Of a DNA stretch of 31,625 nt, positions 2,363 through 31,625 are shown piece by piece (positions within the stretch are counted from its first letter, which is position 1; the number at the start of each line of letters is the position of its first letter). The notes below the pieces were generated by a model. The model searched no databases. It saw only the letters and a list, made by a program, of their open reading frames with translations, and was not told the DNA's origin. Source of the DNA: Gemmatimonadota bacterium (GTDB lineage Bacteria > Gemmatimonadota > Gemmatimonadetes > Longimicrobiales > RSA9); the NCBI GenBank assembly GCA_040905425.1, contig JBBDRO010000032.1, positions 1 to 31,625 of the forward strand. The letters run 5' to 3'. Made by a program: the position numbers and the translations under genes.

Positions 2363-4990
2363 CTATTTATCAATTTCCCATCCATACGGCTCGTATCGAA
2401 GCCGTTTGGCACCAAGCCGGTACTCCCAAACGCCACCGCCCACATCGGCGCCGTCCCTGAGGACCGGATCCCGGAGATCAATCTCCGAACCGGCAAGATC
2501 GTTCACCCTTACGTCAACGAAGCTCGCCACCTCCTTCAGGGCGAACCAACATGGCGCCGGAGGATCCAAGCGGACCCTCACGGAATCATCGCCCAGCCGC
2601 GTACGAATCCTCAATTCATCGCGGAAGCGCGTGGCGTTGCAAGGATAGGTCAGATCGAAATCCAGCGTTGCGTCCCGTGCGAGCAGTTCCTGGCCCATGC
2701 CCCGGCCCTCCACTTCATCGAGCACCACGTCCCAGCCGTCCTCTTCCCGCAACCTCTCCAGATTCTCGAGATGGTAAACCGCCTCGATCAACTCGCGGCT
2801 TTGGTCCGGTAAGCGAATGGTTGCCCGGTCAACGACCAGGCGCCGTGTGAGTTCGAGCGCCGGTTGGTGCTGGTACACAGTGCCCCACCCATGCGAGCCC
2901 CGATATTTCCTCTGAGGCTTGAACCCTGCCGGAGGAACGAGAATGATGGCTCGAGGCTGGGCAAAGGAGATTGGACGCAAGGGATCGCGGCCTCGGTGTC
3001 GATGGAGCCGCCCGATCCGCTGAATCAGGACCTCGATTGGCGCCAGGTCCGTGACCAACAGGTCGAAGTCCAGGTCGAGACTCTGCTCAACCACCTGCGT
3101 GGCAATGAGAATGCTCCCATCGGTTGACCTCGCGCCCTTGCCGAAGCTAGCAAGGATGGATTCATCGAGGTGCTTCCGGTCCGCAGGTGCGTACCGCGCG
3201 TGATATGGTGGGGTCAGGCTGCTCCCAGGTGGACTCCACAGAAGGCCACCGCCGCCCAGCGTGGCAAGGTCCAGGACGCTGCGCTGTGCGTCCTTTACCG
3301 TATTGCGAAGCAGGCAAACCCGAGCGCCAGCCCGCGCGGCCTCGATCGCGAACTTGAATCCATCGGCCTCAGAGGATGTCATCCAGCTCACTTCGCGGCA
3401 CGCCGCGTTTCCATCAACGGCTGTATCACGCCAATCTCCACCGGGCTCGAATACGGCCATCGTGGGATAGGCTCGGTCCACGGCTTCCTGCGCCGTCGAT
3501 TCGTCGGATCCTGAACCGAGCAGACCTCGGGCTTGCGCCGAGAGCGTGGCGGACATTAACACGGCCGTGCCTCCCGCCGCAGAGTGGAATTCGAGCAGTT
3601 GGCGGAGCACCGTCAGCATGTAGAGGTCATGGGAGTGCACCTCATCGACGACTAGCAAGAGGCGTGTAGCCCCAGCAAGCCGCAGATGCGCGTGCTTCAC
3701 AGCCAGCGCGGCAAGCAACACCTGATCCACCGTCCCCACGACCACCTCCGCCGCCAAAAACTTCTTCGCATGACTTGATGACCAATTCGCCAATCCGAAA
3801 GGCGCCTCTCCCTCCTGGTCATCGTGGCGATTCGATTCGGCCGCCAAGGCGTGATTCGCAGCGCGCAACTCGGGCGCCTCGCCACCGATCGCCAGCGTAA
3901 TCCCTGGCGCTTCTTCGTCGTACATGCCATGAAGGGCATCAGCGACCCGGTCCGTCATGGCTCGCGCCGTGGCACGGGTAGGGAGCGCGAAGAACAGACC
4001 GCCGACCCGACCCTCTGCTCGCAATCGGGCATACAGCACAAGCGCCGCTTCCGTCTTACCAGACCCAGTCGCCGCCTCAATCAGGATACGGCTTCCCGGC
4101 CGAGGCAACGGTGTTGCCGCGGCGTGCGCCTGAAGCTGTGTAGGCGTGTTCGGTTGGCCAGATCCGAAGACAGTGGGAAACAGGTGCGCGTACAGATCCC
4201 CTGATCCCAATCTAGCCACCGGTCGTGAAGCGACGACGCCGATTGCGCGACACGCCCTATCGGCCCGCTCCGTGGCGACCTCCCAATACGCGGCCGGGTC
4301 GTCGTCGGCTGCAGGACTCGGCGCAAATGCCTCCTCCGTGGAGCCGATCCAATCCGCCAGGGTAATGAGTCCGGCTAGCAGGTGGGAGAAGCGTGGATCG
4401 TCGGGGAGGCTGTCAAGGCGAGCCATCCTGCTGAGCCCGCTCCAATCCGCGGCCAATAGGCCGATCCTCCGCACTTCATCCAGCGGCTGGCGCCCTCCGA
4501 GCGAAGCGGTCCACAGCTCGCCAAGTCCCTCGCGCGAGCGGCTTGCCAATGCCTGCGGATCGAATGGCCGGCCATGGTGCGCTACCGTGGTAGCGAGGAG
4601 GTCCAGTGGGTTGGCGGATTCGATGGAGATGACCGGATTCAGGATTCCGGAGATCGCCTCCACGAAGGGCTGGAAAGCCAGCGATTCGAGCACGACCTGC
4701 ACATGCCCCTCAGGACGGCGCCTGTTCCTGCCAGGAGCACGCTCCTGGAATCCGTGATTCGCCTTGCCGATATCATGGAGTCCGGCGAGGAAGGTCACGA
4801 ACGCCGCCAGTGGCGGCTGGAGCCCCTCGGGCCCAGCGAGCGCGCTCAGGCGCGCGTTCAGTCGCGAATCCGGCTCTAAGAGGCGGGCGGCAACCGCAGC
4901 CACGTCTGCCGAGTGGGCCACCAATGGATGCCAGCGACCGTCATCGTTTAGCTTGGCCCAGAACGCTGCATCGTAGAGCATGCTTGACAT
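2363..4990 (-). CDS. cas3: CRISPR-associated HD nuclease-helicase Cas3 (type I-E)
   Basis: N-terminal 'FWAK...HPLVAHSADV' and 'LHDIGKA' HD motifs, Walker A 'ATGSGKT', 'DEVH', 'MSAT', 'HARY', 'ATQVVEQSLDLDFD', 'QRIGRLHRH'. ATG 4990 follows AGGAG; ATG 4981 or GTG 5020 are alternative starts. Confidence 0.96.
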   Translation of the reverse strand: MSSMLYDAAFWAKLNDDGRWHPLVAHSADVAAVAARLLEPDSRLNARLSALAGPEGLQPPLAAFVTFLAGLHDIGKANHGFQERAPGRNRRRPEGHVQVVLESLAFQPFVEAISGILNPVISIESANPLDLLATTVAHHGRPFDPQALASRSREGLGELWTASLGGRQPLDEVRRIGLLAADWSGLSRMARLDSLPDDPRFSHLLAGLITLADWIGSTEEAFAPSPAADDDPAAYWEVATERADRACRAIGVVASRPVARLGSGDLYAHLFPTVFGSGQPNTPTQLQAHAAATPLPRPGSRILIEAATGSGKTEAALVLYARLRAEGRVGGLFFALPTRATARAMTDRVADALHGMYDEEAPGITLAIGGEAPELRAANHALAAESNRHDDQEGEAPFGLANWSSSHAKKFLAAEVVVGTVDQVLLAALAVKHAHLRLAGATRLLLVVDEVHSHDLYMLTVLRQLLEFHSAAGGTAVLMSATLSAQARGLLGSGSDESTAQEAVDRAYPTMAVFEPGGDWRDTAVDGNAACREVSWMTSSEADGFKFAIEAARAGARVCLLRNTVKDAQRSVLDLATLGGGGLLWSPPGSSLTPPYHARYAPADRKHLDESILASFGKGARSTDGSILIATQVVEQSLDLDFDLLVTDLAPIEVLIQRIGRLHRHRGRDPLRPISFAQPRAIILVPPAGFKPQRKYRGSHGWGTVYQHQPALELTRRLVVDRATIRLPDQSRELIEAVYHLENLERLREEDGWDVVLDEVEGRGMGQELLARDATLDFDLTYPCNATRFRDELRIRTRLGDDSVRVRLDPPAPCWFALKEVASFVDVRVNDLAGSEIDLRDPVLRDGADVGGGVWEYRLGAKRLRYEPYGWEIDK

Positions 4991-5019
4991 GCCGCTCCTG
5001 CTAGCCCAGATTGGAGCCA

Positions 5020-5057
5020 CGTAAACTGCTTAATGGTTTACGATGTATGGTAAGAAT
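5020..5057. promoter_or_regulatory. AT-rich divergent promoter region of cas3 and the Cascade operon, containing a palindrome and the mini-array target
   Basis: Inverted repeat CGTAAAC-N9-GTTTACG (5020-5042). Overlapping -10-like hexamers TATGGT (+, 5046-5051) and TACCAT (-, 5047-5052). No convincing -35 boxes found. Confidence 0.55.
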
Positions 5058-5146
5058 CTGATCCTGGCACGTGCCGGGGTAGCCCAGGTTTGCGCTGGAT
5101 GGTGGACGAAAAGCCTGTAATTCCCTGCGTCTGCGGGGCGATATCC
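5058..5146 (+). ncRNA. Degenerate mini-CRISPR (pseudo-repeat / spacer / pseudo-repeat); candidate CreR/CreA-like regulatory crRNA-like RNA
   Basis: 5058-5085 CTGATCCTGGCACGTGCCGGGGTAGCCC is 19/28 identical to the array repeat and keeps the hairpin (CCTGGC-ACGT-GCCGGG). 5117-5146 contains CCCTGC-GTCT-GCGGGG. The two stems are 60 nt apart, versus 61 in the array. The spacer matches 5035-5051. Confidence 0.8.
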
Positions 5147-5322
5147 GGTGGGCAGCCGAACTGATCATTCGGCCGTGGACGGTGGGTTCCAAACCCATCG
5201 TCCGCCCTGCCCGGGGCGCTACGGTTATCACAGACTGCCCGTAACGCCAGTGGCACTCGTTAGCTTGCGTCTCATCAGACCAATCCCGATGTTCGGCATT
5301 CACCCTCCAGAGGGACTACGCT

Positions 5323-6897
5323 GTGAACCTACTCGATGCTGAGGTCATCACCGTAGCAGGTGTCGACGGCACGGACCGGCTGTCTCTTCCCGATTTGCTT
5401 GCCCGGCTGTTGGTGGGGCCCGAGATTCTTGGGTGCCCACGGCTCGCCGCCGAGCAGCGTTCATACTGGTGGCGGTTTCTCGTCCGCTGTGCAGCGCGGG
5501 CGCTCCGCACGGCTGATCTCACGGTATCACAGGCCACCCACACCGACAACGTCCAACTCGCTACGGTGGTCCGCGAAGCGCTGCTGAAGCACACCGAGCG
5601 CGCCGATTGGGAGCTTTTCCAGCCGGATCCGTCCAGCGCAGGTTTCCTGCAACCGCCCACGCCGGGAGGCGTAACGCCGGCCGACGATAAGTACAAGCGC
5701 TGCACGTGCGCGCTTCTGACGGCCGTGATCGGCACCAAGGAACATGAGCGAAAGTCTGAGGTGGGGCGGGTGCTCGACGCCGAATCCCTGGTCTACGCGC
5801 TCGTGGAGTACCAGTCAGGTGTGATCTTCGGCGGGCGTGGCAATTACGAGAGCCAGTTGACCGGGTCACGCGCCGGAGCCGGCAGCGGGACGCCGTTCAT
5901 GGGCGCGACCATCAATAATTCCATGCTTGATACGTTTCGTCATGACGTGGGTGTTCTGCTCGGGAACTGGGAACGGACGGCCAGGGACCTGAAGGGCGAC
6001 GTGTGGGCGCTCTGGGCCCATCGTTGGGACGGCGAAAAGCCCCTCCCCGCAGCCCAACTCGACCCGGCGTTCATACCGTTGGCCCGGATGGTTCGTGTCG
6101 GTGCTCCCACGGAGGGAGAGTTTGGCACGGTCTGGTTCCGAGGGTCACAGGGCAGCCGAGTCGCAGATCACACGAACGGCGGGCACCTTGGCGACCCGTT
6201 CACGCCGCTCGTGCCCGATCCAAAGGGTGGTCACCTGAAAGTTCGTGGTACGCTCGCCAAGGGCTACGATTACAAGGAGGTGGTACGGCTGCTCTTCCCG
6301 GATACCAACGAGGAGGCGGTGCCATCGCCGAGCGTCGTCGCCGTGCTCGACGCGCCCCCTGAACGTGAGCTTAGGGTGCTATTCGAAGGCATGGCCTTCG
6401 AGCAGGGCAAGACTCGAGGCTTCCACCGGCGGAGCGTGCGGTTACCCCGCAAGGCGGTGCAGGTTGGCATCGGATTTCGGTCCGAGCCGATCCATGCAAT
6501 ACACAGGATCATGCTGGACCGCACGGCAGACTGCAAGCGTGCCCTAAGCTCGGCTCTAGCCATGCTCCTAACAGGAGAGCCACGGTTGCGGGACGATGAT
6601 CGGGCCAAGGCCCAGACGGCGCTAGATCGGTTCGAAGAACTCGTGGATCGGAATTACCTGGACTTTCTCTTCCGGCTGGCCTTTGACGGTGAGTCAACCG
6701 GGGACACCGAGCCGTACCGACGATGGCTCTTCGAGCAGGCCGTTGAGGAAGTCTTGCCGGAGGCGTTTCGATCGCTGCCGCGGAACTCTGGCCGTCGACT
6801 AGAGCAGGAGGTGATCGCCGAGGCTTACCTGCGGGGAAGGTTGAGAAAGGATCTCGACCTGCCTGTGGCTGATTCACGCCAGGAGGTTACTGCATGA
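5323..6897 (+). CDS. cas8e: Type I-E Cascade large subunit Cas8e (Cse1/CasA), divergent
   Basis: N-terminus 'NLLDAEVITV...RLSLPDLL' resembles Cse1 starts. 524 aa, first gene of the cse2-cas7-cas5-cas6e operon. GTG start after GAGGG. Confidence 0.85.
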   Translation: MNLLDAEVITVAGVDGTDRLSLPDLLARLLVGPEILGCPRLAAEQRSYWWRFLVRCAARALRTADLTVSQATHTDNVQLATVVREALLKHTERADWELFQPDPSSAGFLQPPTPGGVTPADDKYKRCTCALLTAVIGTKEHERKSEVGRVLDAESLVYALVEYQSGVIFGGRGNYESQLTGSRAGAGSGTPFMGATINNSMLDTFRHDVGVLLGNWERTARDLKGDVWALWAHRWDGEKPLPAAQLDPAFIPLARMVRVGAPTEGEFGTVWFRGSQGSRVADHTNGGHLGDPFTPLVPDPKGGHLKVRGTLAKGYDYKEVVRLLFPDTNEEAVPSPSVVAVLDAPPERELRVLFEGMAFEQGKTRGFHRRSVRLPRKAVQVGIGFRSEPIHAIHRIMLDRTADCKRALSSALAMLLTGEPRLRDDDRAKAQTALDRFEELVDRNYLDFLFRLAFDGESTGDTEPYRRWLFEQAVEEVLPEAFRSLPRNSGRRLEQEVIAEAYLRGRLRKDLDLPVADSRQEVTA

Positions 6898-7418
6898 TCG
6901 ATGTAGCAGGCGGCCAAGCTGCCGCACCGACTTTCTCTGAACAGGCCGTAAGGATCGCACGGGCCCTGGAGGAGGGATACTCCGGTATCCCGATGAGCCG
7001 TGGCGATCGGGCGGAGCTGCGGCGCATGCGCGGGGACGTCGCCTTCCCACCGGAGGCGTTCTGGCGGGTCGTGGGCACATTCAACATCACGCCGGGCGAG
7101 GAACCGTTCTGGCGCGATGTGATACCGCTCATGGTCGAACATGCGCACAAGGGAAGCGTGGCGCCGGGCCTGGCGGCTGCCCGTGCCGGCGTGTCTCCGG
7201 CTCGAGTGGAGCGCTGGCTACGGCGGCCAGCGGAAGATGCGCGTAAGGAAGCACGGCGCCTCCTATCCAAGGTGGATGACGGGCTGCACTGGGGTTGGTT
7301 TGCCAGCCTGCTTCGTTTCTGGACGGATGAAGGCCGCACGCGGTTCGCACGGGACTACTTCCTGTCTCCCGAATACCGCAACCGAACACGCCAACACAAA
7401 GCCGAGGAGAGTGCATGA
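6894..7418 (+). CDS. cas11: Type I-E small subunit Cas11 (Cse2/CasB)
   Basis: 'GDRAELRR', 'VSPARVERWL' and C-terminal 'RFARDYF' are Cse2-like. 174 aa, ATGA overlap with cas8e. Confidence 0.88.
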   Translation: MIDVAGGQAAAPTFSEQAVRIARALEEGYSGIPMSRGDRAELRRMRGDVAFPPEAFWRVVGTFNITPGEEPFWRDVIPLMVEHAHKGSVAPGLAAARAGVSPARVERWLRRPAEDARKEARRLLSKVDDGLHWGWFASLLRFWTDEGRTRFARDYFLSPEYRNRTRQHKAEESA

Positions 7419-8578
7419 TGGGACGGCCGCAAGGAGATATGGTTCAGGTGCACATGCTGACGGCGTATCCGGCGGCCCTGCTGAACAGGGACGACGCAGG
7501 GCTGGCAAAGCGGGTTCCGTTCGGCGGTGCGGTGCGGACGCGAATCAGTTCGCAGTGCCTCAAGAAGCACTGGCGCGAGTCTCCCGGAATCGCCGATCTC
7601 GGCGACCTAGCGGTCCGCAGCACGCGCGTGTACGAGCGCGAGGTTGCGCGGCCCCTCATGGAGGAGCACGGCGCCACTGAAACAGAGGCCGTGGCGATCG
7701 CGCAGTGGCTGATGAACCAGTCGGTCGACACCAAGCCCGCCGCGAAGGAGACCGGACTCGAGGCGGCCCAGAGCGGCCAGCTTCTGGTGCTCACCCGCTC
7801 GGAGGTTGAATTCCTGCAAACGCGAGCCGCGGCTCTCCTGAAGGAGTTGCGCGCGGCCGGAGTCGAGGTAGCGAAGCCGGGAGATGTCCCGAAGCACGCG
7901 GAACTAGCCAATGACACGGAGCTGCGTGCCACCCTTAAGGCGCTACCAGCATCGCTGGACACCGCCCTCTTCGGAAGGATGGTCACGTCGGACCTGTTCG
8001 CCCGTGTCGACGCTGCCGTGAGCGTGGCGCATGCGTTCACCACCCACGAGGAGGCGGCGGAGACCGATTACTTCACGGCCGTGGATACGCTGAAGAGTGG
8101 TGCGGATGACGCGGGCGCCGGGCTCATCCAGGACACGGAGCTCACCACCGGTGTGTTCTACCTGTACGCCGTGCTCGACATGAACCAGCTGCGCCATAAC
8201 TTGGTGGGCAACGATGACGGAGGGCTGCCCGATCGTCTGGCGCGCAATCTGGTCGAGGCAATGGCAACCGTGAGCCCCGGAGCCAAGCGCGGTTCGACGG
8301 CCCCCTACTCCTACGCGGAGTTCGTGCTCACCGAGAGGGGCCCGGCTCAGCCTCGAACGCTGGCGAATGCCTTTCTCCAGCCCGTGTCGGCGAACGGGAC
8401 GAACGTGATGACAGCCTCGGCCAACGTGTTGATGGAGCACCGGGCACGATTGGACACGATGTACGGCGCCGCCAAGGTCACTGCCTCGCTGGCGTCGATT
8501 CACGCCGTCAAGGCAGAGGCGCCGGACCGGGTTTCGTTTCCCGAGCTGCTGGAGCGCACCTTCACCACGCCTGTGTAA
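7415..8578 (+). CDS. cas7: Type I-E backbone subunit Cas7 (Cse4/CasC)
   Basis: 'LLNRDDAGLAK', 'RTRISSQCLKKHWR', 'ALFGRM', 'VAHAFTTH', 'DYFTAVD', 'PRTLANAF'. Confidence 0.97.
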   Translation: MMGRPQGDMVQVHMLTAYPAALLNRDDAGLAKRVPFGGAVRTRISSQCLKKHWRESPGIADLGDLAVRSTRVYEREVARPLMEEHGATETEAVAIAQWLMNQSVDTKPAAKETGLEAAQSGQLLVLTRSEVEFLQTRAAALLKELRAAGVEVAKPGDVPKHAELANDTELRATLKALPASLDTALFGRMVTSDLFARVDAAVSVAHAFTTHEEAAETDYFTAVDTLKSGADDAGAGLIQDTELTTGVFYLYAVLDMNQLRHNLVGNDDGGLPDRLARNLVEAMATVSPGAKRGSTAPYSYAEFVLTERGPAQPRTLANAFLQPVSANGTNVMTASANVLMEHRARLDTMYGAAKVTASLASIHAVKAEAPDRVSFPELLERTFTTPV

Positions 8579-9303
8579 TGGCGACGACATCCTTCCTGGT
8601 GTTGCGGCTCGACGCGCCGATGCAATCCTGGGGTCGGGTTGCGATGGATCCGGTCCGGCCTACCCATAGCCACCCCACCCGCTCAGGCCTCGCCGGCTTG
8701 ATCGCCTCTGCGCTGGGATGGCGCTACCGCGATGGAGCGCGTACGACCGCGCTTCAGGACGCCCTACGGTTTGGCATCCGAGAGGATCGTCCCGCACGCA
8801 TCCTGCGCGATTATCACACGGCCGATCTGGGGCGTATCGGGCGGGAGAGCTGGACCCGATGGGGGATGGAACGTCGCGGCGGTGGTACGGCTGCATCGGG
8901 CACGCAGATTCTGGACAAGCACTACCTCGCGGACGCCGTATTCGTGGTGGTCCTCGGCCTCCACGATGGTAGCCCTGTGGATCTTGACGAAATTGCGCAG
9001 GCGCTTCGTACCCCTGCCCGCCCGCTCTTCCTAGGGCGGAAGGGGTGCCTACCCGCAACGCCCATTCTTGTGGGCGAGGTCCAGGCGCCGAACTCGTTCG
9101 AAGCTCTGGCCGCGTGGCCGACCGATTCACGCTCCTCCATCCGCGAAGTGCAATGCTGGTATCAAGATGGTGACGGTCCAGCAGAAGGTGAGCCCGAGGA
9201 GATCTGGGACCGTCGCGACTTCGTCACCGACCGATTCGCCGGCTCTCGCATCGTGCGACGCCATCGCGTGCGTCCCGCGGCGCCCCGCCCAGCCGAGGAG
9301 TGA
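8578..9303 (+). CDS. cas5: Type I-E Cas5 (CasD)
   Basis: 'LRLDAPMQSWG', 'PTRSGLAGLIASALG', 'DYHT', 'YLADA', 'LFLGRKGC'. 241 aa, no extra C-terminal domain. Confidence 0.96.
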   Translation: MATTSFLVLRLDAPMQSWGRVAMDPVRPTHSHPTRSGLAGLIASALGWRYRDGARTTALQDALRFGIREDRPARILRDYHTADLGRIGRESWTRWGMERRGGGTAASGTQILDKHYLADAVFVVVLGLHDGSPVDLDEIAQALRTPARPLFLGRKGCLPATPILVGEVQAPNSFEALAAWPTDSRSSIREVQCWYQDGDGPAEGEPEEIWDRRDFVTDRFAGSRIVRRHRVRPAAPRPAEE

Positions 9304-10025
9304 ACATGAACAGGCCGCACATTTCTGAGGCCGTCCTGGCACTGGATCCTGCACGTGCCGCACGCGGTGCCACGCGGCCCTATCTGGTGCATCAGCTTGT
9401 TGCCGATCTTTTCGGAGAGTTCGAGCGCCGTCCGTTTCTGTACCGTGAGCAGGAAAGCAAGGGTACGTCGCAAACTGTGCTCATCCTTTCGTCTACTGCC
9501 CCGCTAGCTCCAGAGGAAGTTCCCGTGAGAGATGTGGGCGTTGTGCGCTCCATCCGTTCAAAGCCGTTCGTGGTGGATGTGCCGCCTGGTACCATGCTCG
9601 ACTTCGAAATCAGGCTGAACGCAACCAAGGATGTTCCTACCTCCAAGGGAGCGAGATCGAAGCGCATGGATGTGTGGGAGGCAGTGTGGCAGGAGCATCC
9701 GGAGACAACTCGCTCACCTGAACAGGTTTACGGAGAATATCTACAGCGCAAGCTCGACGGCGCCGGCAAAATGGGCGCTTGCGCCCTCGTGGCGCGAGGG
9801 CTTGTGCGGGCCCGCAAGCAGCTGTCCGGCCCCAAACCGATCACCTTCGTGGCTGCCGATCTGATTGGCACGATGGAGGTCACGGACCCGCATGCGCTTG
9901 TGGCTGCTGTTTCCGGGGGCATGGGGCGCGCCAAAGCCTTCGGCTGTGGTTTGATGTGTCTCTCGCGGCCGGGAACGGTCCTGCCACGCCGTCACCCCGA
10001 CGCCGCTCGTGAACTGTACGGGTGA
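9300..10025 (+). CDS. cas6e: Type I-E crRNA-processing endoribonuclease Cas6e (Cse3/CasE)
   Basis: 'YLVHQLV' (His), 'FLYR', 'FEIRLNATK', Gly-rich loop 'GMGRAKAFGCGLM'. Start is GTG 9300 or ATG 9306. Confidence 0.95.
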   Translation: MNMNRPHISEAVLALDPARAARGATRPYLVHQLVADLFGEFERRPFLYREQESKGTSQTVLILSSTAPLAPEEVPVRDVGVVRSIRSKPFVVDVPPGTMLDFEIRLNATKDVPTSKGARSKRMDVWEAVWQEHPETTRSPEQVYGEYLQRKLDGAGKMGACALVARGLVRARKQLSGPKPITFVAADLIGTMEVTDPHALVAAVSGGMGRAKAFGCGLMCLSRPGTVLPRRHPDAARELYG

Positions 10026-10861
10026 TGCTGCAACTCAAGAATCGCCTCTCGTTCTTCTACGTACAGCGAGGTTCGCTGACCGTCGTTGATGGCTGTCTGG
10101 TGTTGACGGACAGCGACGATGCCAAGCAGTACGAGGTGCCCGCGCGGGCAACGGTGACCATCATGGTCGGGCCTGGGACAAATGTCAGCACCGAAGCCAT
10201 GAAGCTGGCTGGGCGATATGGGCTAACGGTGACCTGGGTGGGGGAGCAGGGAGTCCGGTGCTACTCGGCCGGGCGGTCGTGGTCGGATAATACCGAATGG
10301 CTCGAAAAACAGGTCCATGCATACGCCGATCCGAAGCTCACCTTGCAGGTGGCGCGTGAGATGTTCTACCGCCGCTTCGGCGTACGCATGGAGCGTCGGA
10401 GCGTGGACCAGCTTAGAGGCATTGAAGGCGCCCGGGTACGTGAATTTTACAAGCTCAAGGCGCAGGAGTATGGCATTCCCTGGAACGGTCGGCGATACAT
10501 CCCTGGGAATCCGCTTCGGGAGACAGACGCACCTAATCTGGCGTTGAACGTGGCCAACGTCTGCCTTTACGGTCTGGTCGAAACGGCGTGCCACGCCACA
10601 GGAATGAGTCCGGCGCTGGGATTCATTCACCGCGGGAAGTCTGTTTCGTTCGTGCTGGACATCGCCGACCTCTACAAATTTGAACACACGATTCCCCTCG
10701 CGTTTGGCGCCGTCGCAAAGAGGGGCCGCAACGCACGGGTGTGGCCAGGCCTGGAAGGCGACCTTCGGCGCGCTTCACGGGATCATTTCCGTAAAACGTC
10801 CCTCTTGGAGCGAATCGTAACCGACATGACGGGGTTGATCGATGCTGGTGTTGGTTCTTGA
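10022..10861 (+). CDS. cas1: Type I-E Cas1 integrase (short C-terminus)
   Basis: 'VGPGTNVSTEA', 'WVGEQGVRCY', 'QLRGIEGARVR', 'WNGRRY', 'LGFIHRGKSVSFVLDIADLYK' with catalytic E/H/D equivalents present. Confidence 0.97.
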   Translation: MMLQLKNRLSFFYVQRGSLTVVDGCLVLTDSDDAKQYEVPARATVTIMVGPGTNVSTEAMKLAGRYGLTVTWVGEQGVRCYSAGRSWSDNTEWLEKQVHAYADPKLTLQVAREMFYRRFGVRMERRSVDQLRGIEGARVREFYKLKAQEYGIPWNGRRYIPGNPLRETDAPNLALNVANVCLYGLVETACHATGMSPALGFIHRGKSVSFVLDIADLYKFEHTIPLAFGAVAKRGRNARVWPGLEGDLRRASRDHFRKTSLLERIVTDMTGLIDAGVGS

Positions 10862-11162
10862 ATGCGCCCCGCCGAAAGTAGTCGGTTTCTGTTCGTCGTG
10901 GGCCCTTCAGATCGCCACGGGAGTGTATGTGGCGAACCTTCCACGCAGGGAGATGGAAGAGATCTGGGAGCAGATCGTCGACTGGGCGGATGAACAAACG
11001 CGGATTGTCATGGTCTGGGATTCACCGGCCACTGAACAGGGTCTGGAACACCGGCTTTTCGGCAAGCCTCGACGTACCGTCACCGATCGTGAAGGGCTCC
11101 TCATCTCGACATGGTCGCCCCGTCTCCAAGATGACCTCGCGGAACCCGAACAGACCCCGTAG
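10842..11162 (+). CDS. cas2: Type I-E Cas2 (no DnaQ fusion)
   Basis: 'MLVLVLECAPP...W...GVYV...IWEQI...EQG...G..RR..D.EGL' pattern. 106 aa, overlaps the cas1 3' end. Confidence 0.93.
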   Translation: MLVLVLECAPPKVVGFCSSWALQIATGVYVANLPRREMEEIWEQIVDWADEQTRIVMVWDSPATEQGLEHRLFGKPRRTVTDREGLLISTWSPRLQDDLAEPEQTP

Positions 11163-11213: not shown

Positions 11214-14200
11214 GTGAGCCCCGCGCCTGCGGGGGTGGGCCGGAGCGCAAGCGGAACCAGGCGGCGTTTGCGGGGTGAGCCCCGCGCCTGCGGGGGTGGG
11301 CCTGCCACTTTGCAGCCGGGCGTTGCGCACCTCCGGTGAGCCCCGCGCCTGCGGGGGTGGGCCGATCGTGGCCACCTGGACATCCGGGACAGGCGCGTGA
11401 GCCCCGCGCCTGCGGGGGTGGGCCCGAGGTGGACTTCTCGAAGGCGGGCGTGGTCAAGTGAGCCCCGCGCCTGCGGGGGTGGGCCGCCAGCACCGTCTCC
11501 CGCTCGGCCGACCTGCTCGTGAGCCCCGCGCCTGCGGGGGTGGGCCTCTCGTCGTCTGCCGCACCCTGATTGATCGTGAGTGAGCCCCGCGCCTGCGGGG
11601 GTGGGCCGGACGTTGCCGACATGAACGCCGATGCCATCATGTGAGCCCCGCGCCTGCGGGGGTGGGCCTTGGACAGACGTGCGGGTGAAGTGGCTGCGCT
11701 CGTGAGCCCCGCGCCTGCGGGGGTGGGCCCCTGTGGGCAGAACCGCTACTCGAAGACCTGGAGTGAGCCCCGCGCCTGCGGGGGTGGGCCCTTTCAGCAC
11801 TGCGCGCACGTCACGTTCTTCCCGTGAGCCCCGCGCCTGCGGGGGTGGGCCGGCGTCACCCTCCGACCTCGCGCGGAGGCTGCTGTGAGCCCCGCGCCTG
11901 CGGGGGTGGGCCTGTGACGCACCGCGCGCGCGCCCCCCGCATGCGGTGAGCCCCGCGCCTGCGGGGGTGGGCCCCTGGCGAGCTACCGTGCTGCTCCACC
12001 CTGCTAGTGAGCCCCGCGCCTGCGGGGGTGGGCCCGCGGGAGGCCGCCGTCCTGGAGGAAAACATCCGTGAGCCCCGCGCCTGCGGGGGTGGGCCTCCTG
12101 CCGTGCAGGGGCCAGCCGTGTTCCCACCGTGAGCCCCGCGCCTGCGGGGGTGGGCCGCGCACGTACTCGCCCGACTGGAAGTTGCGCGCGTGAGCCCCGC
12201 GCCTGCGGGGGTGGGCCCTTCAACGACACCGTGGCGGTGGGCGACGGCGAGTGAGCCCCGCGCCTGCGGGGGTGGGCCGCCATGTCAGCGCCTCCCCACG
12301 AGTGCGGCAATGTGAGCCCCGCGCCTGCGGGGGTGGGCCGGTGGCCATGGCGGCCGATGCGCTGGACCGCGCGTGAGCCCCGCGCCTGCGGGGGTGGGCC
12401 GCTCCATCCCATGTCGAAGGGGATCCTCAGCCGGTGAGCCCCGCGCCTGCGGGGGTGGGCCGCCGCAACGGGTTTCGGGAGTTTAGCGCAACAAGTGAGC
12501 CCCGCGCCTGCGGGGGTGGGCCTGGCTGTGGCCTGGATGGTGGCCAGGTCTACCGGTGAGCCCCGCGCCTGCGGGGGTGGGCCCTGGTCTACATAGGCGC
12601 GCAGCACTTCGACTGCGTGAGCCCCGCGCCTGCGGGGGTGGGCCCGGTTGCCATCTATGCCCCCAGAATCAGTATGTGTGAGCCCCGCGCCTGCGGGGGT
12701 GGGCCCACGTTCGGCACGATCCGCGTCCAGAGCGCGCAGTGAGCCCCGCGCCTGCGGGGGTGGGCCTTGAGTAGCCAAGCCGCCGTCGTCCCTGACCGTG
12801 TGAGCCCCGCGCCTGCGGGGGTGGGCCCCGAGAACGCCTATGGCCACTTCAAGGGCGATGGTGAGCCCCGCGCCTGCGGGGGTGGGCCGGTGCCCCAACA
12901 TGACGCCTGCGGCGCTCGGAGGTGAGCCCCGCGCCTGCGGGGGTGGGCCTTCTGCCGGGTCATGTCGCTACCCCCTCCCGCTGTGAGCCCCGCGCCTGCG
13001 GGGGTGGGCCTCATCAAGGGCGCGGTGTCGATGGAGAACGCGAGTGAGCCCCGCGCCTGCGGGGGTGGGCCGGTGGCAGGGGAGCCGGAGGCGGAAGGCG
13101 TCGAGTGAGCCCCGCGCCTGCGGGGGTGGGCCTCAGGGTGCGGCGGACGACGAGATCCTGGCGTTGTGAGCCCCGCGCCTGCGGGGGTGGGCCTTCGTCG
13201 GACGTGTCCGGGGACGCCGAGTTCAAGTGAGCCCCGCGCCTGCGGGGGTGGGCCTGGCGACCGCGACGGACGGCGTAGCTATCACACGTGAGCCCCGCGC
13301 CTGCGGGGGTGGGCCTGAGCTGTACGCCGCCGCCAACCAGGTCGGCTTGTGAGCCCCGCGCCTGCGGGGGTGGGCCGGGTAGAGAACGTGGAAAAAATGA
13401 TGCGTGACGGTGAGCCCCGCGCCTGCGGGGGTGGGCCGACGAAGTGGCGGAAGTCGTGGACCTGCGGGCAGTGAGCCCCGCGCCTGCGGGGGTGGGCCTG
13501 TCTGCTGAGTGCGTCATCGTCACTCCAGGGGGTGAGCCCCGCGCCTGCGGGGGTGGGCCCCACCAGCCACAACCACCCGGCGCTTTGCCTCACGTGAGCC
13601 CCGCGCCTGCGGGGGTGGGCCCTGCACCGTGAAGGTTCTGCCACAGGTGGGGCAGTGAGCCCCGCGCCTGCGGGGGTGGGCCCGCTTCCAGCCGATCCTT
13701 CCCACATGGTGCCACGTGAGCCCCGCGCCTGCGGGGGTGGGCCCAGGTCGCGCACCGGAAACTTGAGGCGCTTGTGGTGAGCCCCGCGCCTGCGGGGGTG
13801 GGCCGGCTGCACGGTCGCTCGGGGTTACGAAGGGGTAGTGAGCCCCGCGCCTGCGGGGGTGGGCCGTCGACTTGTCATGTTAAGATAGGCCCGGATTCGT
13901 GAGCCCCGCGCCTGCGGGGGTGGGCCTACATCATGTCGAGGATCGCGTTGACCGCGCCCGTGAGCCCCGCGCCTGCGGGGGTGGGCCAGGCGCACACATT
14001 GAGCGGGGGTAAGCTGTCGAGTGAGCCCCGCGCCTGCGGGGGTGGGCCGTCCTGAACGTCCAGACATACGGGCTCTCAACCGTGAGCCCCGCGCCTGCGG
14101 GGGTGGGCCCGTTGGCCGGCGATTCTTCGGCGCCGGCCACTTGTGAGCCCCGCGCCTGCGGGGGTGGGCCGGCATATGGGGCGCGCGCATGGGGCCGTGG

Positions 14201-17200
14201 CAGGTGAGCCCCGCGCCTGCGGGGGTGGGCCGCGTCCAGCGGTTGCTGATCGAGCCATCGTTGTGTGAGCCCCGCGCCTGCGGGGGTGGGCCTACTGCCT
14301 GGTTCATGCTTTACGCCTCCTGCAAGTGAGCCCCGCGCCTGCGGGGGTGGGCCGCTCTTCGGTCAGCTTGACCAGCTTCTCGGGTGGTGAGCCCCGCGCC
14401 TGCGGGGGTGGGCCTGCATAGGTGGCCGGCTTGCTGTACTTGTGATCGTGAGCCCCGCGCCTGCGGGGGTGGGCCCATGTACCATGGAGGGGGCACCACG
14501 ACGCTCCCGTGAGCCCCGCGCCTGCGGGGGTGGGCCGCGGGGTGCACACCCCGATCTGACACAGTGAACGTGAGCCCCGCGCCTGCGGGGGTGGGCCCGG
14601 AGACGAACTGTGACCAATACCGCAACCGCCGTGAGCCCCGCGCCTGCGGGGGTGGGCCTCAGGAGGCGTTTGATTTGACCGTGCAGCTCACGTGAGCCCC
14701 GCGCCTGCGGGGGTGGGCCGCAGGAAATAGGCAGGGAACAGGCGGCTAACCTGTGAGCCCCGCGCCTGCGGGGGTGGGCCGCCGCACTATCAGAGCCCAT
14801 CACAATCCAGCGGGTGAGCCCCGCGCCTGCGGGGGTGGGCCGCCGACCAGCCAGGCGGCCGAGATGGCGAAGAGGTGAGCCCCGCGCCTGCGGGGGTGGG
14901 CCTTTAGGCCATCGGCGCTTCCCGGTCACGTCCGGGTGAGCCCCGCGCCTGCGGGGGTGGGCCCGGCATCCGCCCGGCACGGATCGGCATCAAGCCGTGA
15001 GCCCCGCGCCTGCGGGGGTGGGCCGCGCGATCATCATTCACGAGCGGGGGTACCGATGTGAGCCCCGCGCCTGCGGGGGTGGGCCGTGCCATGCGCCACC
15101 AGCGCTCCGCATCCCTGAGTGAGCCCCGCGCCTGCGGGGGTGGGCCACGCTTTACCACCGGACGCTCCAGCGCGGCGGTGTGAGCCCCGCGCCTGCGGGG
15201 GTGGGCCTGGGGATCTGGAAGATGACACGATTAAGCTCCCGTGAGCCCCGCGCCTGCGGGGGTGGGCCCAGCCACTGTCGGGTGGGGGTGCGCCGCTTCG
15301 TGTGAGCCCCGCGCCTGCGGGGGTGGGCCGCGCACTCGGCATAGCCGGCCAGGTCAACCAGAGTGAGCCCCGCGCCTGCGGGGGTGGGCCGCTTGTTCTG
15401 CGCGCGCTTGGCCTCGCTCTTTGGTGAGCCCCGCGCCTGCGGGGGTGGGCCGCATCGTGAGCACGTGGACAACGAACTAGTTCAGTGAGCCCCGCGCCTG
15501 CGGGGGTGGGCCGTACAAGGAGATCGCCCCCGGGAACTACAACGAGTGAGCCCCGCGCCTGCGGGGGTGGGCCTCGTTCACGCGGCTGCCGGAAGCCAGC
15601 GCGCTCGTGAGCCCCGCGCCTGCGGGGGTGGGCCGCGGTAGCCGGCGCCAGCCTCACGGGCGGCGGCGTGAGCCCCGCGCCTGCGGGGGTGGGCCTGGCG
15701 ATCACGATCAGCGCTAGCTTGATCGCGTGTGAGCCCCGCGCCTGCGGGGGTGGGCCGACATGGTGACCACCCGCGGGGAGCTGTGGACGGTGAGCCCCGC
15801 GCCTGCGGGGGTGGGCCGCCCCCCTGGAGGCGCCGTGAAAAAGGCATCTAGTGAGCCCCGCGCCTGCGGGGGTGGGCCGCGTGTTGCCCATGGTGCTGGT
15901 CGTGGTCCGAAGTGAGCCCCGCGCCTGCGGGGGTGGGCCGAACACGAACCGCGCGCTGGCCAAGGCGAAGAAGTGAGCCCCGCGCCTGCGGGGGTGGGCC
16001 GTACGTCGGCGCAGCCACGGGCGGCGGGCCGGCGTGAGCCCCGCGCCTGCGGGGGTGGGCCTGGACCTGGGCAAGGCGCCCAAGATCACCGGCAGTGAGC
16101 CCCGCGCCTGCGGGGGTGGGCCGTGCGCGATCATGAGGGAGTGCAGCGTCATCAGGTGAGCCCCGCGCCTGCGGGGGTGGGCCGGACTTGGCCGACTGGC
16201 TGACCGCTCCGGACGCGTGAGCCCCGCGCCTGCGGGGGTGGGCCGGCCGGCGTGGTCGGCAAGGTGCTGGCCAACCTGTGAGCCCCGCGCCTGCGGGGGT
16301 GGGCCGACGAGGCCCTGATGGACGAGCTGGCGGCGGTCGTGAGCCCCGCGCCTGCGGGGGTGGGCCGACGTACAGCCTTCTCGACCTGACCGCGCAAGTG
16401 TGAGCCCCGCGCCTGCGGGGGTGGGCCGGTCGTCCAGTCGGTCGACTTCCAGGCGATGCAGTGAGCCCCGCGCCTGCGGGGGTGGGCCTGCGGAGTGCCG
16501 GGATGCGGGCACGTCATACGAGTGAGCCCCGCGCCTGCGGGGGTGGGCCCCCTGAGTGTGGGCCGCTACCGGAAAGCACAGGGTGAGCCCCGCGCCTGCG
16601 GGGGTGGGCCGTGGGCTGGGAGAACGCCAGCCAGCTCGGCGCCGTGAGCCCCGCGCCTGCGGGGGTGGGCCTAACCATACTCTCCAGGAGCGCCAGTGTA
16701 CGGGGTGAGCCCCGCGCCTGCGGGGGTGGGCCGTTTGCAGATGAGCTGCGAAACGGAATCGTCAAGTGAGCCCCGCGCCTGCGGGGGTGGGCCGCTTGCA
16801 CCGCGTCTCCGCCACGGAGTGCACGTGTGAGCCCCGCGCCTGCGGGGGTGGGCCCCCTGCCCGACCCGCAGGAAGAACGGCGACCACGTGAGCCCCGCGC
16901 CTGCGGGGGTGGGCCGGCGCCCTACATCACCGAAACGGGAACACTCAGGTGAGCCCCGCGCCTGCGGGGGTGGGCCTCATGGACCAGGGCGAACACCACT
17001 GGCAGGACGGTGAGCCCCGCGCCTGCGGGGGTGGGCCGAAAACAGGGGGACGAAATGAGCGAACTGAAGGGTGAGCCCCGCGCCTGCGGGGGTGGGCCGG
17101 CGTCCCAGATAATGCGCTCCAGCCAGTCCCCGTGAGCCCCGCGCCTGCGGGGGTGGGCCCGAGGATCAGGCCACACCGGCAGACGTAGAGGTGTGAGCCC

Positions 17201-17586
17201 CGCGCCTGCGGGGGTGGGCCCGAAAGACACCACATCCATAGCCACCTACCCACGTGAGCCCCGCGCCTGCGGGGGTGGGCCCCATATTTGGCGCTCCAAC
17301 ACCAACACACGGGCGTGAGCCCCGCGCCTGCGGGGGTGGGCCGCCGGCCACGTTCGTCGCTCTCGTGCATAAGCAGTGAGCCCCGCGCCTGCGGGGGTGG
17401 GCCCCATGATACTCGGACAGAACCCCGGCGAGGCGTGTGAGCCCCGCGCCTGCGGGGGTGGGCCGCCCTCGTACTCGGATTGAATCTCGGCCAGGTCGTG
17501 AGCCCCGCGCCTGCGGGGGTGGGCCTCGTGGAGTAGGTCTGCTATGTGCTGCTGTAGGGTGAGCCCCGCGCCTGCGGGGGTGGGCC
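11214..17586 (+). CRISPR. Type I-E CRISPR array: 105 repeats (GTGAGCCCCGCGCCTGCGGGGGTGGGCC, 28 bp), 104 spacers
   Basis: 61-bp period throughout (33-nt spacers), except one 34-nt spacer at 13560-13593. Hairpin CCCCGC-GCCT-GCGGGG. Orientation from similarity to the E. coli I-E repeat GTGTTCCCCGCGCCAGCGGGGATAAACC and from leader position. Confidence 0.99.
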
Positions 17587-30787: not shown

Positions 30788-30877
30788 GCGCCCGCCGCGT
30801 GGACGCGGCGGTCCTGCAGGTTTCTTGCGATGCGTCCCCGGGCCGATGGCGGCACCGGGACCACTACGAGGGAGGTC

Positions 30878-31625
30878 ATGATGGCCGCCAGGTCGAAGTC
30901 GGGGAGCGCCAGGAAGAGTACCGCTAAGAAGAAGGCGGCTGCGAAGAAGAAGGCGCCGGCTAAGAAGAAGGCGCCGGCGAAGAAGAAGACGGCCGCCAGG
31001 AAGGCGCCCTCGAAGAAGAAGGCGGCGGCCAAGAAGGCGGCGCCGGCGAAGAAGAAGGCGGCTCCTAAGAAGAAGGCACCGGCGAAGAAGAAGGCACCGG
31101 CCAAGAAGAACGCGGCCGTCAAGAAGAAGGCGCCCTCGAAGAAGAAGGCGGCAGCCAAGAAGGCGGCGCCGGTGAAGAAGAAGGCGGCGGCCAAGAAGAA
31201 GGTGGCCGCGAAGAAGAAGGCGCCGGTGAAGAAGAAGGCGGCCGCGAAGAAGAAGGCGGCGTCGAAGAAGAAGTCTGCTGCGAAGAAGTCCCCGAAGAGG
31301 AAGTCCACCGTGACGAAGAAGTCGGCCAGTAAGAAGGCCACTAAGAAGACGGCCGCCAAGAAGAAGGCGGCGGCGACGAAGAAGGCCCCGGCGAAGAAGA
31401 AGGCCCCGGCGAAGAAGAAGGCGACGCCGAAGAAGAAGGCGCCTGCGAAGAAGATGGCCCCGGCGAAGAAGAAGGCGACGCCGAAGAAGAAGGCCCCGCC
31501 GAAGAAGAAGGCGGCGCCGAAGAAGAAGGCGCCTGCGAAGAAGAAGGCCCCGCCGAAGAAGAAGGCACCTGCCAAGAAGAAGGCGCCGGCCAAGAAGAAG
31601 GCGCCGGCCAAGAAGAAGGCGCCGG
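30878..31625 (+). CDS. Histone H1-like Lys/Ala/Pro-rich protein (runs off the window end)
   Basis: GGAGG RBS then ATG ATG GCC…; MMAARSKSGSARKSTAKKKAAAKKKAPAKKKAP… with no stop before the edge, so it is absent from the ORF track. Confidence 0.85.
   Translation, partial: MMAARSKSGSARKSTAKKKAAAKKKAPAKKKAPAKKKTAARKAPSKKKAAAKKAAPAKKKAAPKKKAPAKKKAPAKKNAAVKKKAPSKKKAAAKKAAPVKKKAAAKKKVAAKKKAPVKKKAAAKKKAASKKKSAAKKSPKRKSTVTKKSASKKATKKTAAKKKAAATKKAPAKKKAPAKKKATPKKKAPAKKMAPAKKKATPKKKAPPKKKAAPKKKAPAKKKAPPKKKAPAKKKAPAKKKAPAKKKAP
30920..31625 (+). repeat. Degenerate ~18-bp tandem repeat encoding (P/A)AKKKA
   Basis: Recurrent CCGGCGAAGAAGAAGGCG-like units. Confidence 0.9.

Follow-up and report, generated by a model that had tools for sequence, protein, structure and literature searches.

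A candidate CreR-type mini-CRISPR between cas3 and cas8e in a type I-E locus of an uncultured Gemmatimonadota bacterium

The type I-E locus and its cas3-cas8e spacer

The stretch of DNA analysed here, referred to as the window (31,625 nucleotides), belongs to a Gemmatimonadota assembly of 4.12 Mb that consists of 115 contigs and has a GC content of 70%. NCBIfam profile matches together with open reading frames (ORFs) identified a complete type I-E CRISPR-Cas locus within the window. On the + strand, the intergenic spacer between cas3 and cas8e is followed by cas8e, cse2, cas7, cas5, cas6e, cas1, and cas2, in that order. In other words, the full cas set (these seven genes and cas3) and an array are present, and these are the parts that the regulation proposed below requires. 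The principal features of the locus are as follows.

2363..4990, - strand: cas3 (HD nuclease and helicase), with NCBIfam Cas3 core and HD domains; divergent from the Cascade operon
5323..6897, + strand: cas8e, with an NCBIfam Cse1/CasA match (E = 2.2e-10) that falls under the curated cut-off
9300..10025, + strand: cas6e, with an NCBIfam CasE match; the endoribonuclease expected to process the mini-array
11214..17586, + strand: canonical CRISPR array with 105 of 105 identical 28-nt repeats, 104 spacers, and a period of 61

Where does the spacer between the two divergent genes begin and end? The cas3 ORF extends upstream as far as a GTG at 5020. An ATG at 4990 has AGGAG upstream and lies 19 residues before a conserved WHPL motif, as in the homologue from a related locus (L005), and this ATG, not the GTG at 5020, is likely the true start of cas3. 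A start at 4990 would make the non-coding cas3-cas8e spacer 332 nt long (4991-5322). At the other end, cas8e homologues with 54-58% identity share its MNLL start. A coding reading of the ORFs inside the spacer was rejected, as they display no coding GC pattern and no NCBIfam match.

The Cas6e protein of the locus looks intact. Its alignment with Cse3 of T. thermophilus (1wj9, 2y8w) extends through the PY..H stretch and through the glycine-rich loop at the C-terminus. The spacers of the canonical array are nearly uniform in length (103 of 33 nt and one of 34 nt). The first spacer base after the repeat, which is position 29 of the repeat-spacer unit, was G in 50 of the 105 units, T in 28, C in 25, and A in only two. 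This distribution suggests that spacer uptake includes the base next to an AA-type PAM, with A disfavoured at that place.

The cas genes (2363-11162) exhibit a third-position GC of 0.66-0.81 and an overall GC below the 70% genome average. A search for Cas8e homologues found three in ~60 related genomes, at 27-30% identity, and one in 400 genomes of the phylum, at 39%. Homologues of higher identity were present at two loci in species-representative contigs (56-57%) and at two loci in metagenome contigs (54-58%), one of the latter without its upstream region. One of the four contigs in the 54-58% range is labelled as a Trueperaceae assembly. The cas locus was probably acquired horizontally, given that its GC is low, its nearest Cas8e homologues lie outside the phylum, and none in the 61 related and 400 phylum genomes exceeds 39% identity.

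Coding repeats occur near both ends of the window. In the region 488-2296, a protein whose residues or positions at 558-890 give weak TPR/YbgF-like matches contains a tandem repeat of 75 nt (25 residues), and the region 30830-31624 carries an 18-nt tandem repeat that runs from 30836 to the end of the window. Within the canonical array, the first 17 nt of the spacer at 12340 exactly match a chromosomal site at 18993-19009 of contig C20. This match is probably noise, as ~1 such match would be expected by chance over all spacers by our own estimate.

The mini-array and its predicted target

A repeat-like element, referred to here as the mini-array (5058-5145), sits inside the 332-nt cas3-cas8e spacer. 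Its parts and its predicted product are as follows.

5058..5085, + strand: pseudo-repeat 1, with a hairpin at 5063-5078 and a handle-forming part at 5079-5085
5086..5117, + strand: pseudo-spacer of 32 nt between the pseudo-repeats; guide position 1 in the E. coli frame is 5087
5118..5145, + strand: pseudo-repeat 2, with a hairpin at 5123-5138; identity to the array repeat is 14/16 in the core, 15/28 over the whole, and 1/7 in the handle
5079..5138, + strand: predicted mature crRNA-like RNA of 60 nt, made of a 7+1-nt 5' handle, the guide, and a 21-nt 3' hairpin

An earlier note on this DNA had described 5058-5085 as an ungapped match to the array repeat at 19 of 28 positions, and had pointed to stem changes that preserve pairing and to a second hairpin downstream. 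The alignment was reproduced with the same coordinates and letters, and the account of the stems was found to be correct. In pseudo-repeat 1, C9>G is compensated by G18>C, and C8>T makes a T-G pair (G-U in RNA). Owing to this compensatory swap and the G-U pair, all six of the six pairs of the repeat hairpin are kept. The second hairpin (CCCTGC-GTCT-GCGGGG) at 5123-5138 agrees with the stem-loop core of the repeat at 14/16 positions, and the pseudo-repeats are spaced 60 nt from start to start, compared with the array period of 61. The pseudo-spacer is 1 nt shorter than the typical 33-nt array spacer. Changes from the array repeat affect 9/28 positions in pseudo-repeat 1 and 13/28 in pseudo-repeat 2.

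Pseudo-repeat 1 is slightly closer to the repeats of related loci (20/28) than to the repeat of its own array. Likewise, its handle agrees at 5/7 positions with its own repeat and at 6/7 with the repeats of relatives. The handle of the two nearest relatives is GUAGGCC, and the predicted handle here is GUAGCCC+A. The boundaries of the predicted product (5079-5138) assume cleavage after repeat position 21, which is where Cas6e is known to cut according to the available text of a study of the type I-E system (PMC3890593).

The minimum-free-energy fold of the + strand RNA of 5058-5145 has an energy of -32.7 kcal/mol and both hairpins form in it. The - strand RNA folds to just -21.8 kcal/mol because two G-U pairs turn into A-C mismatches. 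This asymmetry speaks for a structure formed in RNA from the cas8e strand rather than for a simple palindrome in the DNA. A mini-array read from the minus strand was considered and rejected; its pair sum is 28 versus 34, it has no handle, its flank is CTT, and its fold is poorer.

Other sequences in and near the mini-array may be of regulatory interest. The hexamer TGTAAT at 5116-5121, located at the end of the pseudo-spacer just 5' of pseudo-repeat 2, agrees with the -10 consensus at 5/6 positions and could be a second promoter inside the mini-array that is directed toward cas8e. Between the mini-array and cas8e, 5179-5205 forms a 12-bp hairpin (GGACGGTGGGTT-CCA-AACCCATCGTCC) with no T-run behind it, which could be an attenuator or a processing signal.

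How readily would a repeat-like sequence of this kind arise by chance? Matches to the repeat at 19/28 or better occur four times in the window outside the array (three on the + strand and one on the - strand) and 665 times genome-wide in 8,221,404 positions. Pairs of matches whose identities sum to at least 34 at a spacing of 59-62 nt number 276 genome-wide. Repeat identity alone is thus within the genome background and is no signal by itself; such sites are common because a GC-rich repeat resembles a GC-rich genome. A structural test was made on the whole genome by collecting pairs of in-register 6-bp hairpins spaced 59-62 nt apart (n = 614). Only two of the 614 pairs reach an identity sum of at least 34. 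One is the pair at 5058-5145, and the other is located in a GC-rich stretch of contig C30. In other words, the mini-array pair is significant only when identity and hairpins are combined. It also falls in the only spacer known to harbour elements of this kind. A search of Rfam with 4950-5400 at E values up to 10 returned six weak matches (snoRNA, miRNA, RsmY, and others), none of them to a CRISPR repeat family.

The earlier note had named no target for the guide. One was found in the follow-up analysis and is listed here with its flank.

5035..5051, + strand: predicted Cascade binding site; matches guide positions 1-17 (5087-5103) except 6, 9, and 12
5032..5033, + strand: AA at the inferred PAM position of the predicted target; AAT (5032-5034) in the E. 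coli frame

The predicted target is located 52 nt upstream of the guide on the same strand, and its nominal 33-nt protospacer is 5034-5066. The positions at every sixth step of the guide (6 and 12) are unpaired in type I-E Cascade, as established from structures, and so position 9 is the one true mismatch. The match therefore covers 14 of 15 pairing positions, and the seed (positions 1-5, 7, and 8) is intact at 7/7. By our own arithmetic, two of three mismatches would land on positions 6 and 12 with a chance of ~0.02 (15 of 680 ways). Non-pairing at every sixth position is also stated for I-F1 in the available text of 10.1101/2023.03.03.530964. The similarity has sharp limits. It begins exactly at guide position 1, with 0/8 handle positions matching upstream of the target, and stops at position 17, with 1/14 positions matching beyond.

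Further evidence comes from the uniqueness of the match. On both strands of the 4.12-Mb genome, 56 sites score at least 12/15 against the guide. The guide itself scores 15, and the site at 5035, with a score of 14, is the best non-self match in the genome. The next-best sites are two that score 13/15, with seeds of 6/7 and 5/7. When the spacer flanks were shuffled (n = 5000), no shuffle reached 14, with or without AA; the maximum was 13 and was reached twice. Like the anatomy of the mini-array and its statistics, the guide-target match and its uniqueness are direct observations. The decisive signal is not repeat likeness but the joint occurrence of in-register hairpins, a spacing like that of the array, and a self-match with an intact seed and a putative PAM.

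The AA flank can be compared with the type I-E system of S. thermophilus, which has a 28-nt repeat and a 33-nt spacer. According to the available text of PMC3890593, this system uses a 7-nt handle and a 21-nt 3' handle, and its PAM is AA, immediately 5' of the 33-nt protospacer. In the S. thermophilus frame, AA occupies 5032-5033 and the protospacer begins with T5034, a first base that also occurs in 28 of the 105 array units. By this analogy, the AA at 5032-5033 fits the PAM of a 28/33-type I-E system. At the guide itself the flank is CC (5084-5085) instead of AA, which should protect this DNA. Searches for protospacers that could define the PAM were negative: the 104 spacers found none in their own genome (best 18 nt exact or 23/25), and the array found none in GenBank phages, where there was one weak match with E = 0.05.

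The predicted target lies within the GC minimum of the spacer, which is 30% at 5030-5059 in a genome of 70% GC. This AT-rich patch is the likeliest place for the -10 regions of divergent promoters. A scan of 4950-5400 for sigma-70 consensus promoters and terminators found no sites. A looser promoter scan yielded only weak candidates, with 7-8/12 matches, at the target region of the GC minimum. These were TTAATG-16-AAGAAT and TAAACT-18-TATGGT on the + strand and TACCAT on the - strand. To judge by its position and its 30% GC, the target site may be part of a promoter.

Proposed regulation and rival explanations

How would an RNA of this kind act? The steps set out here, from promoter and processing through loading and PAM recognition to repression, are predictions read from the sequence. 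The mini-array would be transcribed on the + strand toward cas8e from the AT-rich patch at ~5022-5057. Cas6e would cut at the 3' base of each hairpin, after 5078 and 5138. Cleavage would free the 60-nt RNA with its near-canonical handle (GUAGCCC+A) and a 3' hairpin of the canonical type. The crRNA-like RNA would then load into Cascade and guide it to 5035-5051 beside the AA at 5032-5033. Pairing would be limited to the 17 PAM-proximal positions and would produce a partial R-loop. Cas3 licensing needs a full R-loop. Because the PAM-distal half of the protospacer would be left unpaired, the partial R-loop would hold Cascade on the DNA without licensing Cas3. Since the predicted target directly precedes the mini-array and is 42 nt away from the start codon of cas3, Cascade bound there would be expected to obstruct RNA polymerase in the region of the divergent promoters. 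Repression would reduce the expression of the mini-array together with the Cascade operon, that of cas3, or both. This feedback would be lifted once crRNAs or anti-CRISPRs draw Cascade off.

It is probable that 5058-5145 is a degenerate two-repeat CreR-type mini-CRISPR that lets Cascade throttle its own genes. The earlier note had reached a CreR/CreA-like reading from the hairpins, and this reading stands as the best explanation, with added support from the guide-target match, the putative PAM flank, and a CreR-like pattern of decay. A further possibility, which is tentative and by itself rather unlikely, is that the guide is part of the 5' leader of the Cascade mRNA, so that the loop acts on Cascade and Cas3 from one point. 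In that case, the mini-array and cas8e-cas2 would share a single transcript that starts from one promoter in the AT-rich patch (5022-5057). Cas6e would excise the guide from the leader, and the loaded Cascade would occupy that same promoter, facing cas3 42 nt away.

Related loci and natural variants bear on the CreR-type reading. The earlier note had suggested aligning related cas3-cas8e spacers to look for conserved, covarying hairpins; the spacers of the nearest loci did not align with 4991-5322 and so gave no covariation signal. A mini-array was found by repeat likeness in neither of the two loci with known repeats (L005 and L006), and a PAM-flanked internal guide-target pair was found in none of four loci (L005, L006, L008, and L015). 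The cas3-cas8e spacer is 332 nt long here versus ~245 nt in L005 and L006. Three of the loci display a -10-like GAGAAT or GAGATT after GG, located 84-99 nt upstream of cas8e (~2402-2407 in L005, ~2416-2421 in L006, and ~1116-1121 in L008). The window has AAGAAT (5052-5057) directly after the predicted target, 271 nt upstream of cas8e. If AAGAAT corresponds to the promoter element of those loci, an insertion of the mini-array plus another 177 nt would have separated the promoter from cas8e. The shared -10-like word is too weak to count as evidence.

A search with 4600-5900 found five sequencing runs, none of them listed as RNA, and natural variation was seen in one. Run X1, which may be the origin of the DNA analysed here, and runs X3 and X4 from the same study carry the same sequence, with no differences in the cas3-cas8e spacer. 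Run X5 is a sediment metagenome from another study, and its contig differs from the window by 82 substitutions and 11 gap letters over 4608-5215 (~86% identity). The spacer contains six indels in X5 (at 5027, 5030, 5052, 5059, 5142, and 5144). All six avoid the PAM and target (5032-5051) and the hairpin-to-hairpin stretch (5063-5138). By our own arithmetic, the chance of such a placement is ~0.035 if the indels are six independent events and ~0.1 if they are four clusters. The pattern gives weak support to a length constraint on functional blocks.

Could the mini-array be an inert remnant, either of a former regulatory mini-array or of a stray repeat-spacer-repeat unit, that has ceased to be transcribed, processed, or loaded, with the guide-target similarity left as a relic? 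The many changed repeat positions (9/28 and 13/28) and the pseudo-spacer that is 1 nt short would suit such a history. It is also consistent with the lack of a consensus promoter in 4950-5400, with the failure to find a mini-array in the nearest loci (0/2 and 0/4), and with the fact that no close relatives of the cas locus were found among 61 relatives and 400 phylum genomes. However, neutral decay is not expected to keep 6/6 pairs twice by way of a compensatory swap and two G-U pairs. Decay does not account for an intact 7/7 seed with an AA flank either, and the hairpin-to-hairpin block is free of indels in the ~86% relative. These results make an inert remnant improbable. Another suggestion is that the sites are DNA operators of a protein regulator and that their likeness to a CRISPR repeat arose by chance in a GC-rich genome. 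The operators would be the 17-nt direct repeats 5035-5051 and 5087-5103 and the near-palindromes 5063-5078 and 5123-5138. In agreement with this, 19/28 repeat identity is common (665 genome sites), GGCACGTGCC is a perfect DNA palindrome, and the mismatch pattern at 6, 9, and 12 is symmetric, so that the pattern alone does not fix the strand. Moreover, the I-E cas promoters of E. coli are under H-NS, LeuO, and CRP, according to work cited in the available text of 10.1101/2023.03.03.530964. Operators leave unexplained, however, why hairpins should lie in repeat register at a 60-nt spacing, which is seen in only 2/614 pairs. In addition, the G-U pairs of the stems exist solely in the + strand RNA, one direct repeat begins exactly one handle length (8 nt) past the first hairpin, and its partner (5035-5051) is preceded by AA. 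Taken with these points, the operator explanation is very unlikely.

Very little probability is also left for an antitoxin of the CreA type, in which Cascade would repress the promoter of a small toxic RNA or peptide encoded in 5146-5322 (177 nt), resulting in Cascade addiction. The spacer is long enough to invite this explanation (332 nt versus ~245 nt in L005 and L006), and 5146-5322 contains strong hairpins such as the 12-bp stem at 5179-5205. The available texts of 10.1101/2023.03.10.532045 and 10.1101/2023.03.03.530964 report CreTA modules and an enrichment of toxin-antitoxin genes near mini-arrays. On the other hand, the spacer ORFs lack the coding GC pattern of the cas genes, NCBIfam has no match to a 100-aa ORF in the spacer, no Rfam match rises above noise, and 5050-5325 has an unremarkable fold (z = -1.43). 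NCBIfam, Rfam, and coding GC revealed no toxin candidate in 4991-5322, a result to be read with the fact that small RNA toxins have no general signature.

Relation to known systems

Returning to the CreR-type reading, both its class and its architecture, namely a type I-E mini-array that lies between cas3 and cas8, is transcribed away from cas3, and has a target in a cas promoter, are already published (10.1101/2023.03.10.532045; 10.1101/2023.03.03.530964). The comparisons made here draw on the available portions of these papers. Liu et al. (10.1101/2023.03.10.532045) described CreR upstream of casA in the type I-E system of S. enterica and demonstrated repression by means of a reporter. The S. 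enterica CreR has a 15-nt match, flanked by AAG, ~140 bp upstream of casA. A later report (10.1101/2024.10.29.618823) regards type I-E CreR as an established regulator and reports on phage mimics.

The element in the window shares several properties with S. enterica CreR as portrayed in the available text (10.1101/2023.03.10.532045). Both are degenerate mini-CRISPRs in the spacer upstream of casA/cas8e. In both, the first pseudo-repeat keeps the handle-forming part (eight nucleotides in S. enterica) and the second keeps the 3' hairpin. In both, a partial match lies beside a PAM in the region of a cas promoter, with PAM and promoter putative here; it spans 15 consecutive nt in S. enterica and 17 nt with three mismatches here, and a toxin gene is not evident in either. 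There are differences as well. The target is located upstream of the mini-array here, in the AT-rich patch facing cas3, whereas that of S. enterica is located ~140 bp upstream of casA. The AT-rich patch of the target probably also drives the mini-array itself. The flank is AAT here in place of the canonical AAG. Furthermore, the window comes from an uncultured Gemmatimonadota bacterium and has a divergent cas3, and the element is known from sequence alone, unlike S. enterica CreR.

A broader survey by Shmakov et al. (10.1101/2023.03.03.530964, PMC10120712) found mini-arrays in ~19% of bacterial type I-E loci. In the available text of the survey, these mini-arrays typically occupy long cas3-cas8 spacers, are transcribed away from cas3, and have PAM-flanked partial targets in the cas8 promoter. 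The I-E and I-F1 mini-arrays of the survey and the one described here share a long (>200 bp) cas3-cas8 spacer, two repeat-like units of which one is better kept, and a predicted transcription away from cas3. They also share a partial match that is anchored in the seed, with a PAM at the cas promoter (both promoter and PAM being inferred here), and a tolerance for mismatches at every sixth position. In the E. coli example of the survey, however, the target is downstream of the mini-array and just upstream of Pcas, whereas here it is upstream of the mini-array. Moreover, the upstream repeat is highly similar to the array repeat in the survey but agrees at only 19/28 positions here, and a pipeline based on BLASTN would therefore probably miss this mini-array.

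A more distant comparison is with CreTA of the Haloarcula hispanica I-B system, which consists of the CreA antitoxin RNA and the CreT toxin, as summarised in the available text of 10.1101/2023.03.10.532045. CreTA and the present element have in common a degenerate mini-CRISPR RNA in a cas locus and partial complementarity that leads to promoter repression by Cascade, which is a prediction in our case. They differ in subtype (I-E here and I-B in CreTA) and in that no toxin candidate was found here in 4991-5322.

The known mechanism is unchanged by the mini-array described here. What it adds is a putative CreR-type element from an uncultured Gemmatimonadota genome, and an indication that regulators of this type can be recognised even at 19/28 repeat identity, which is below the reach of similarity-based array and repeat finders. 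If the proposal is true, one guide controls the effector, the nuclease, and itself. The arrangement represents a variant of the published layouts, in that the predicted target precedes the mini-array and occupies the sole AT-rich patch of a divergent spacer.
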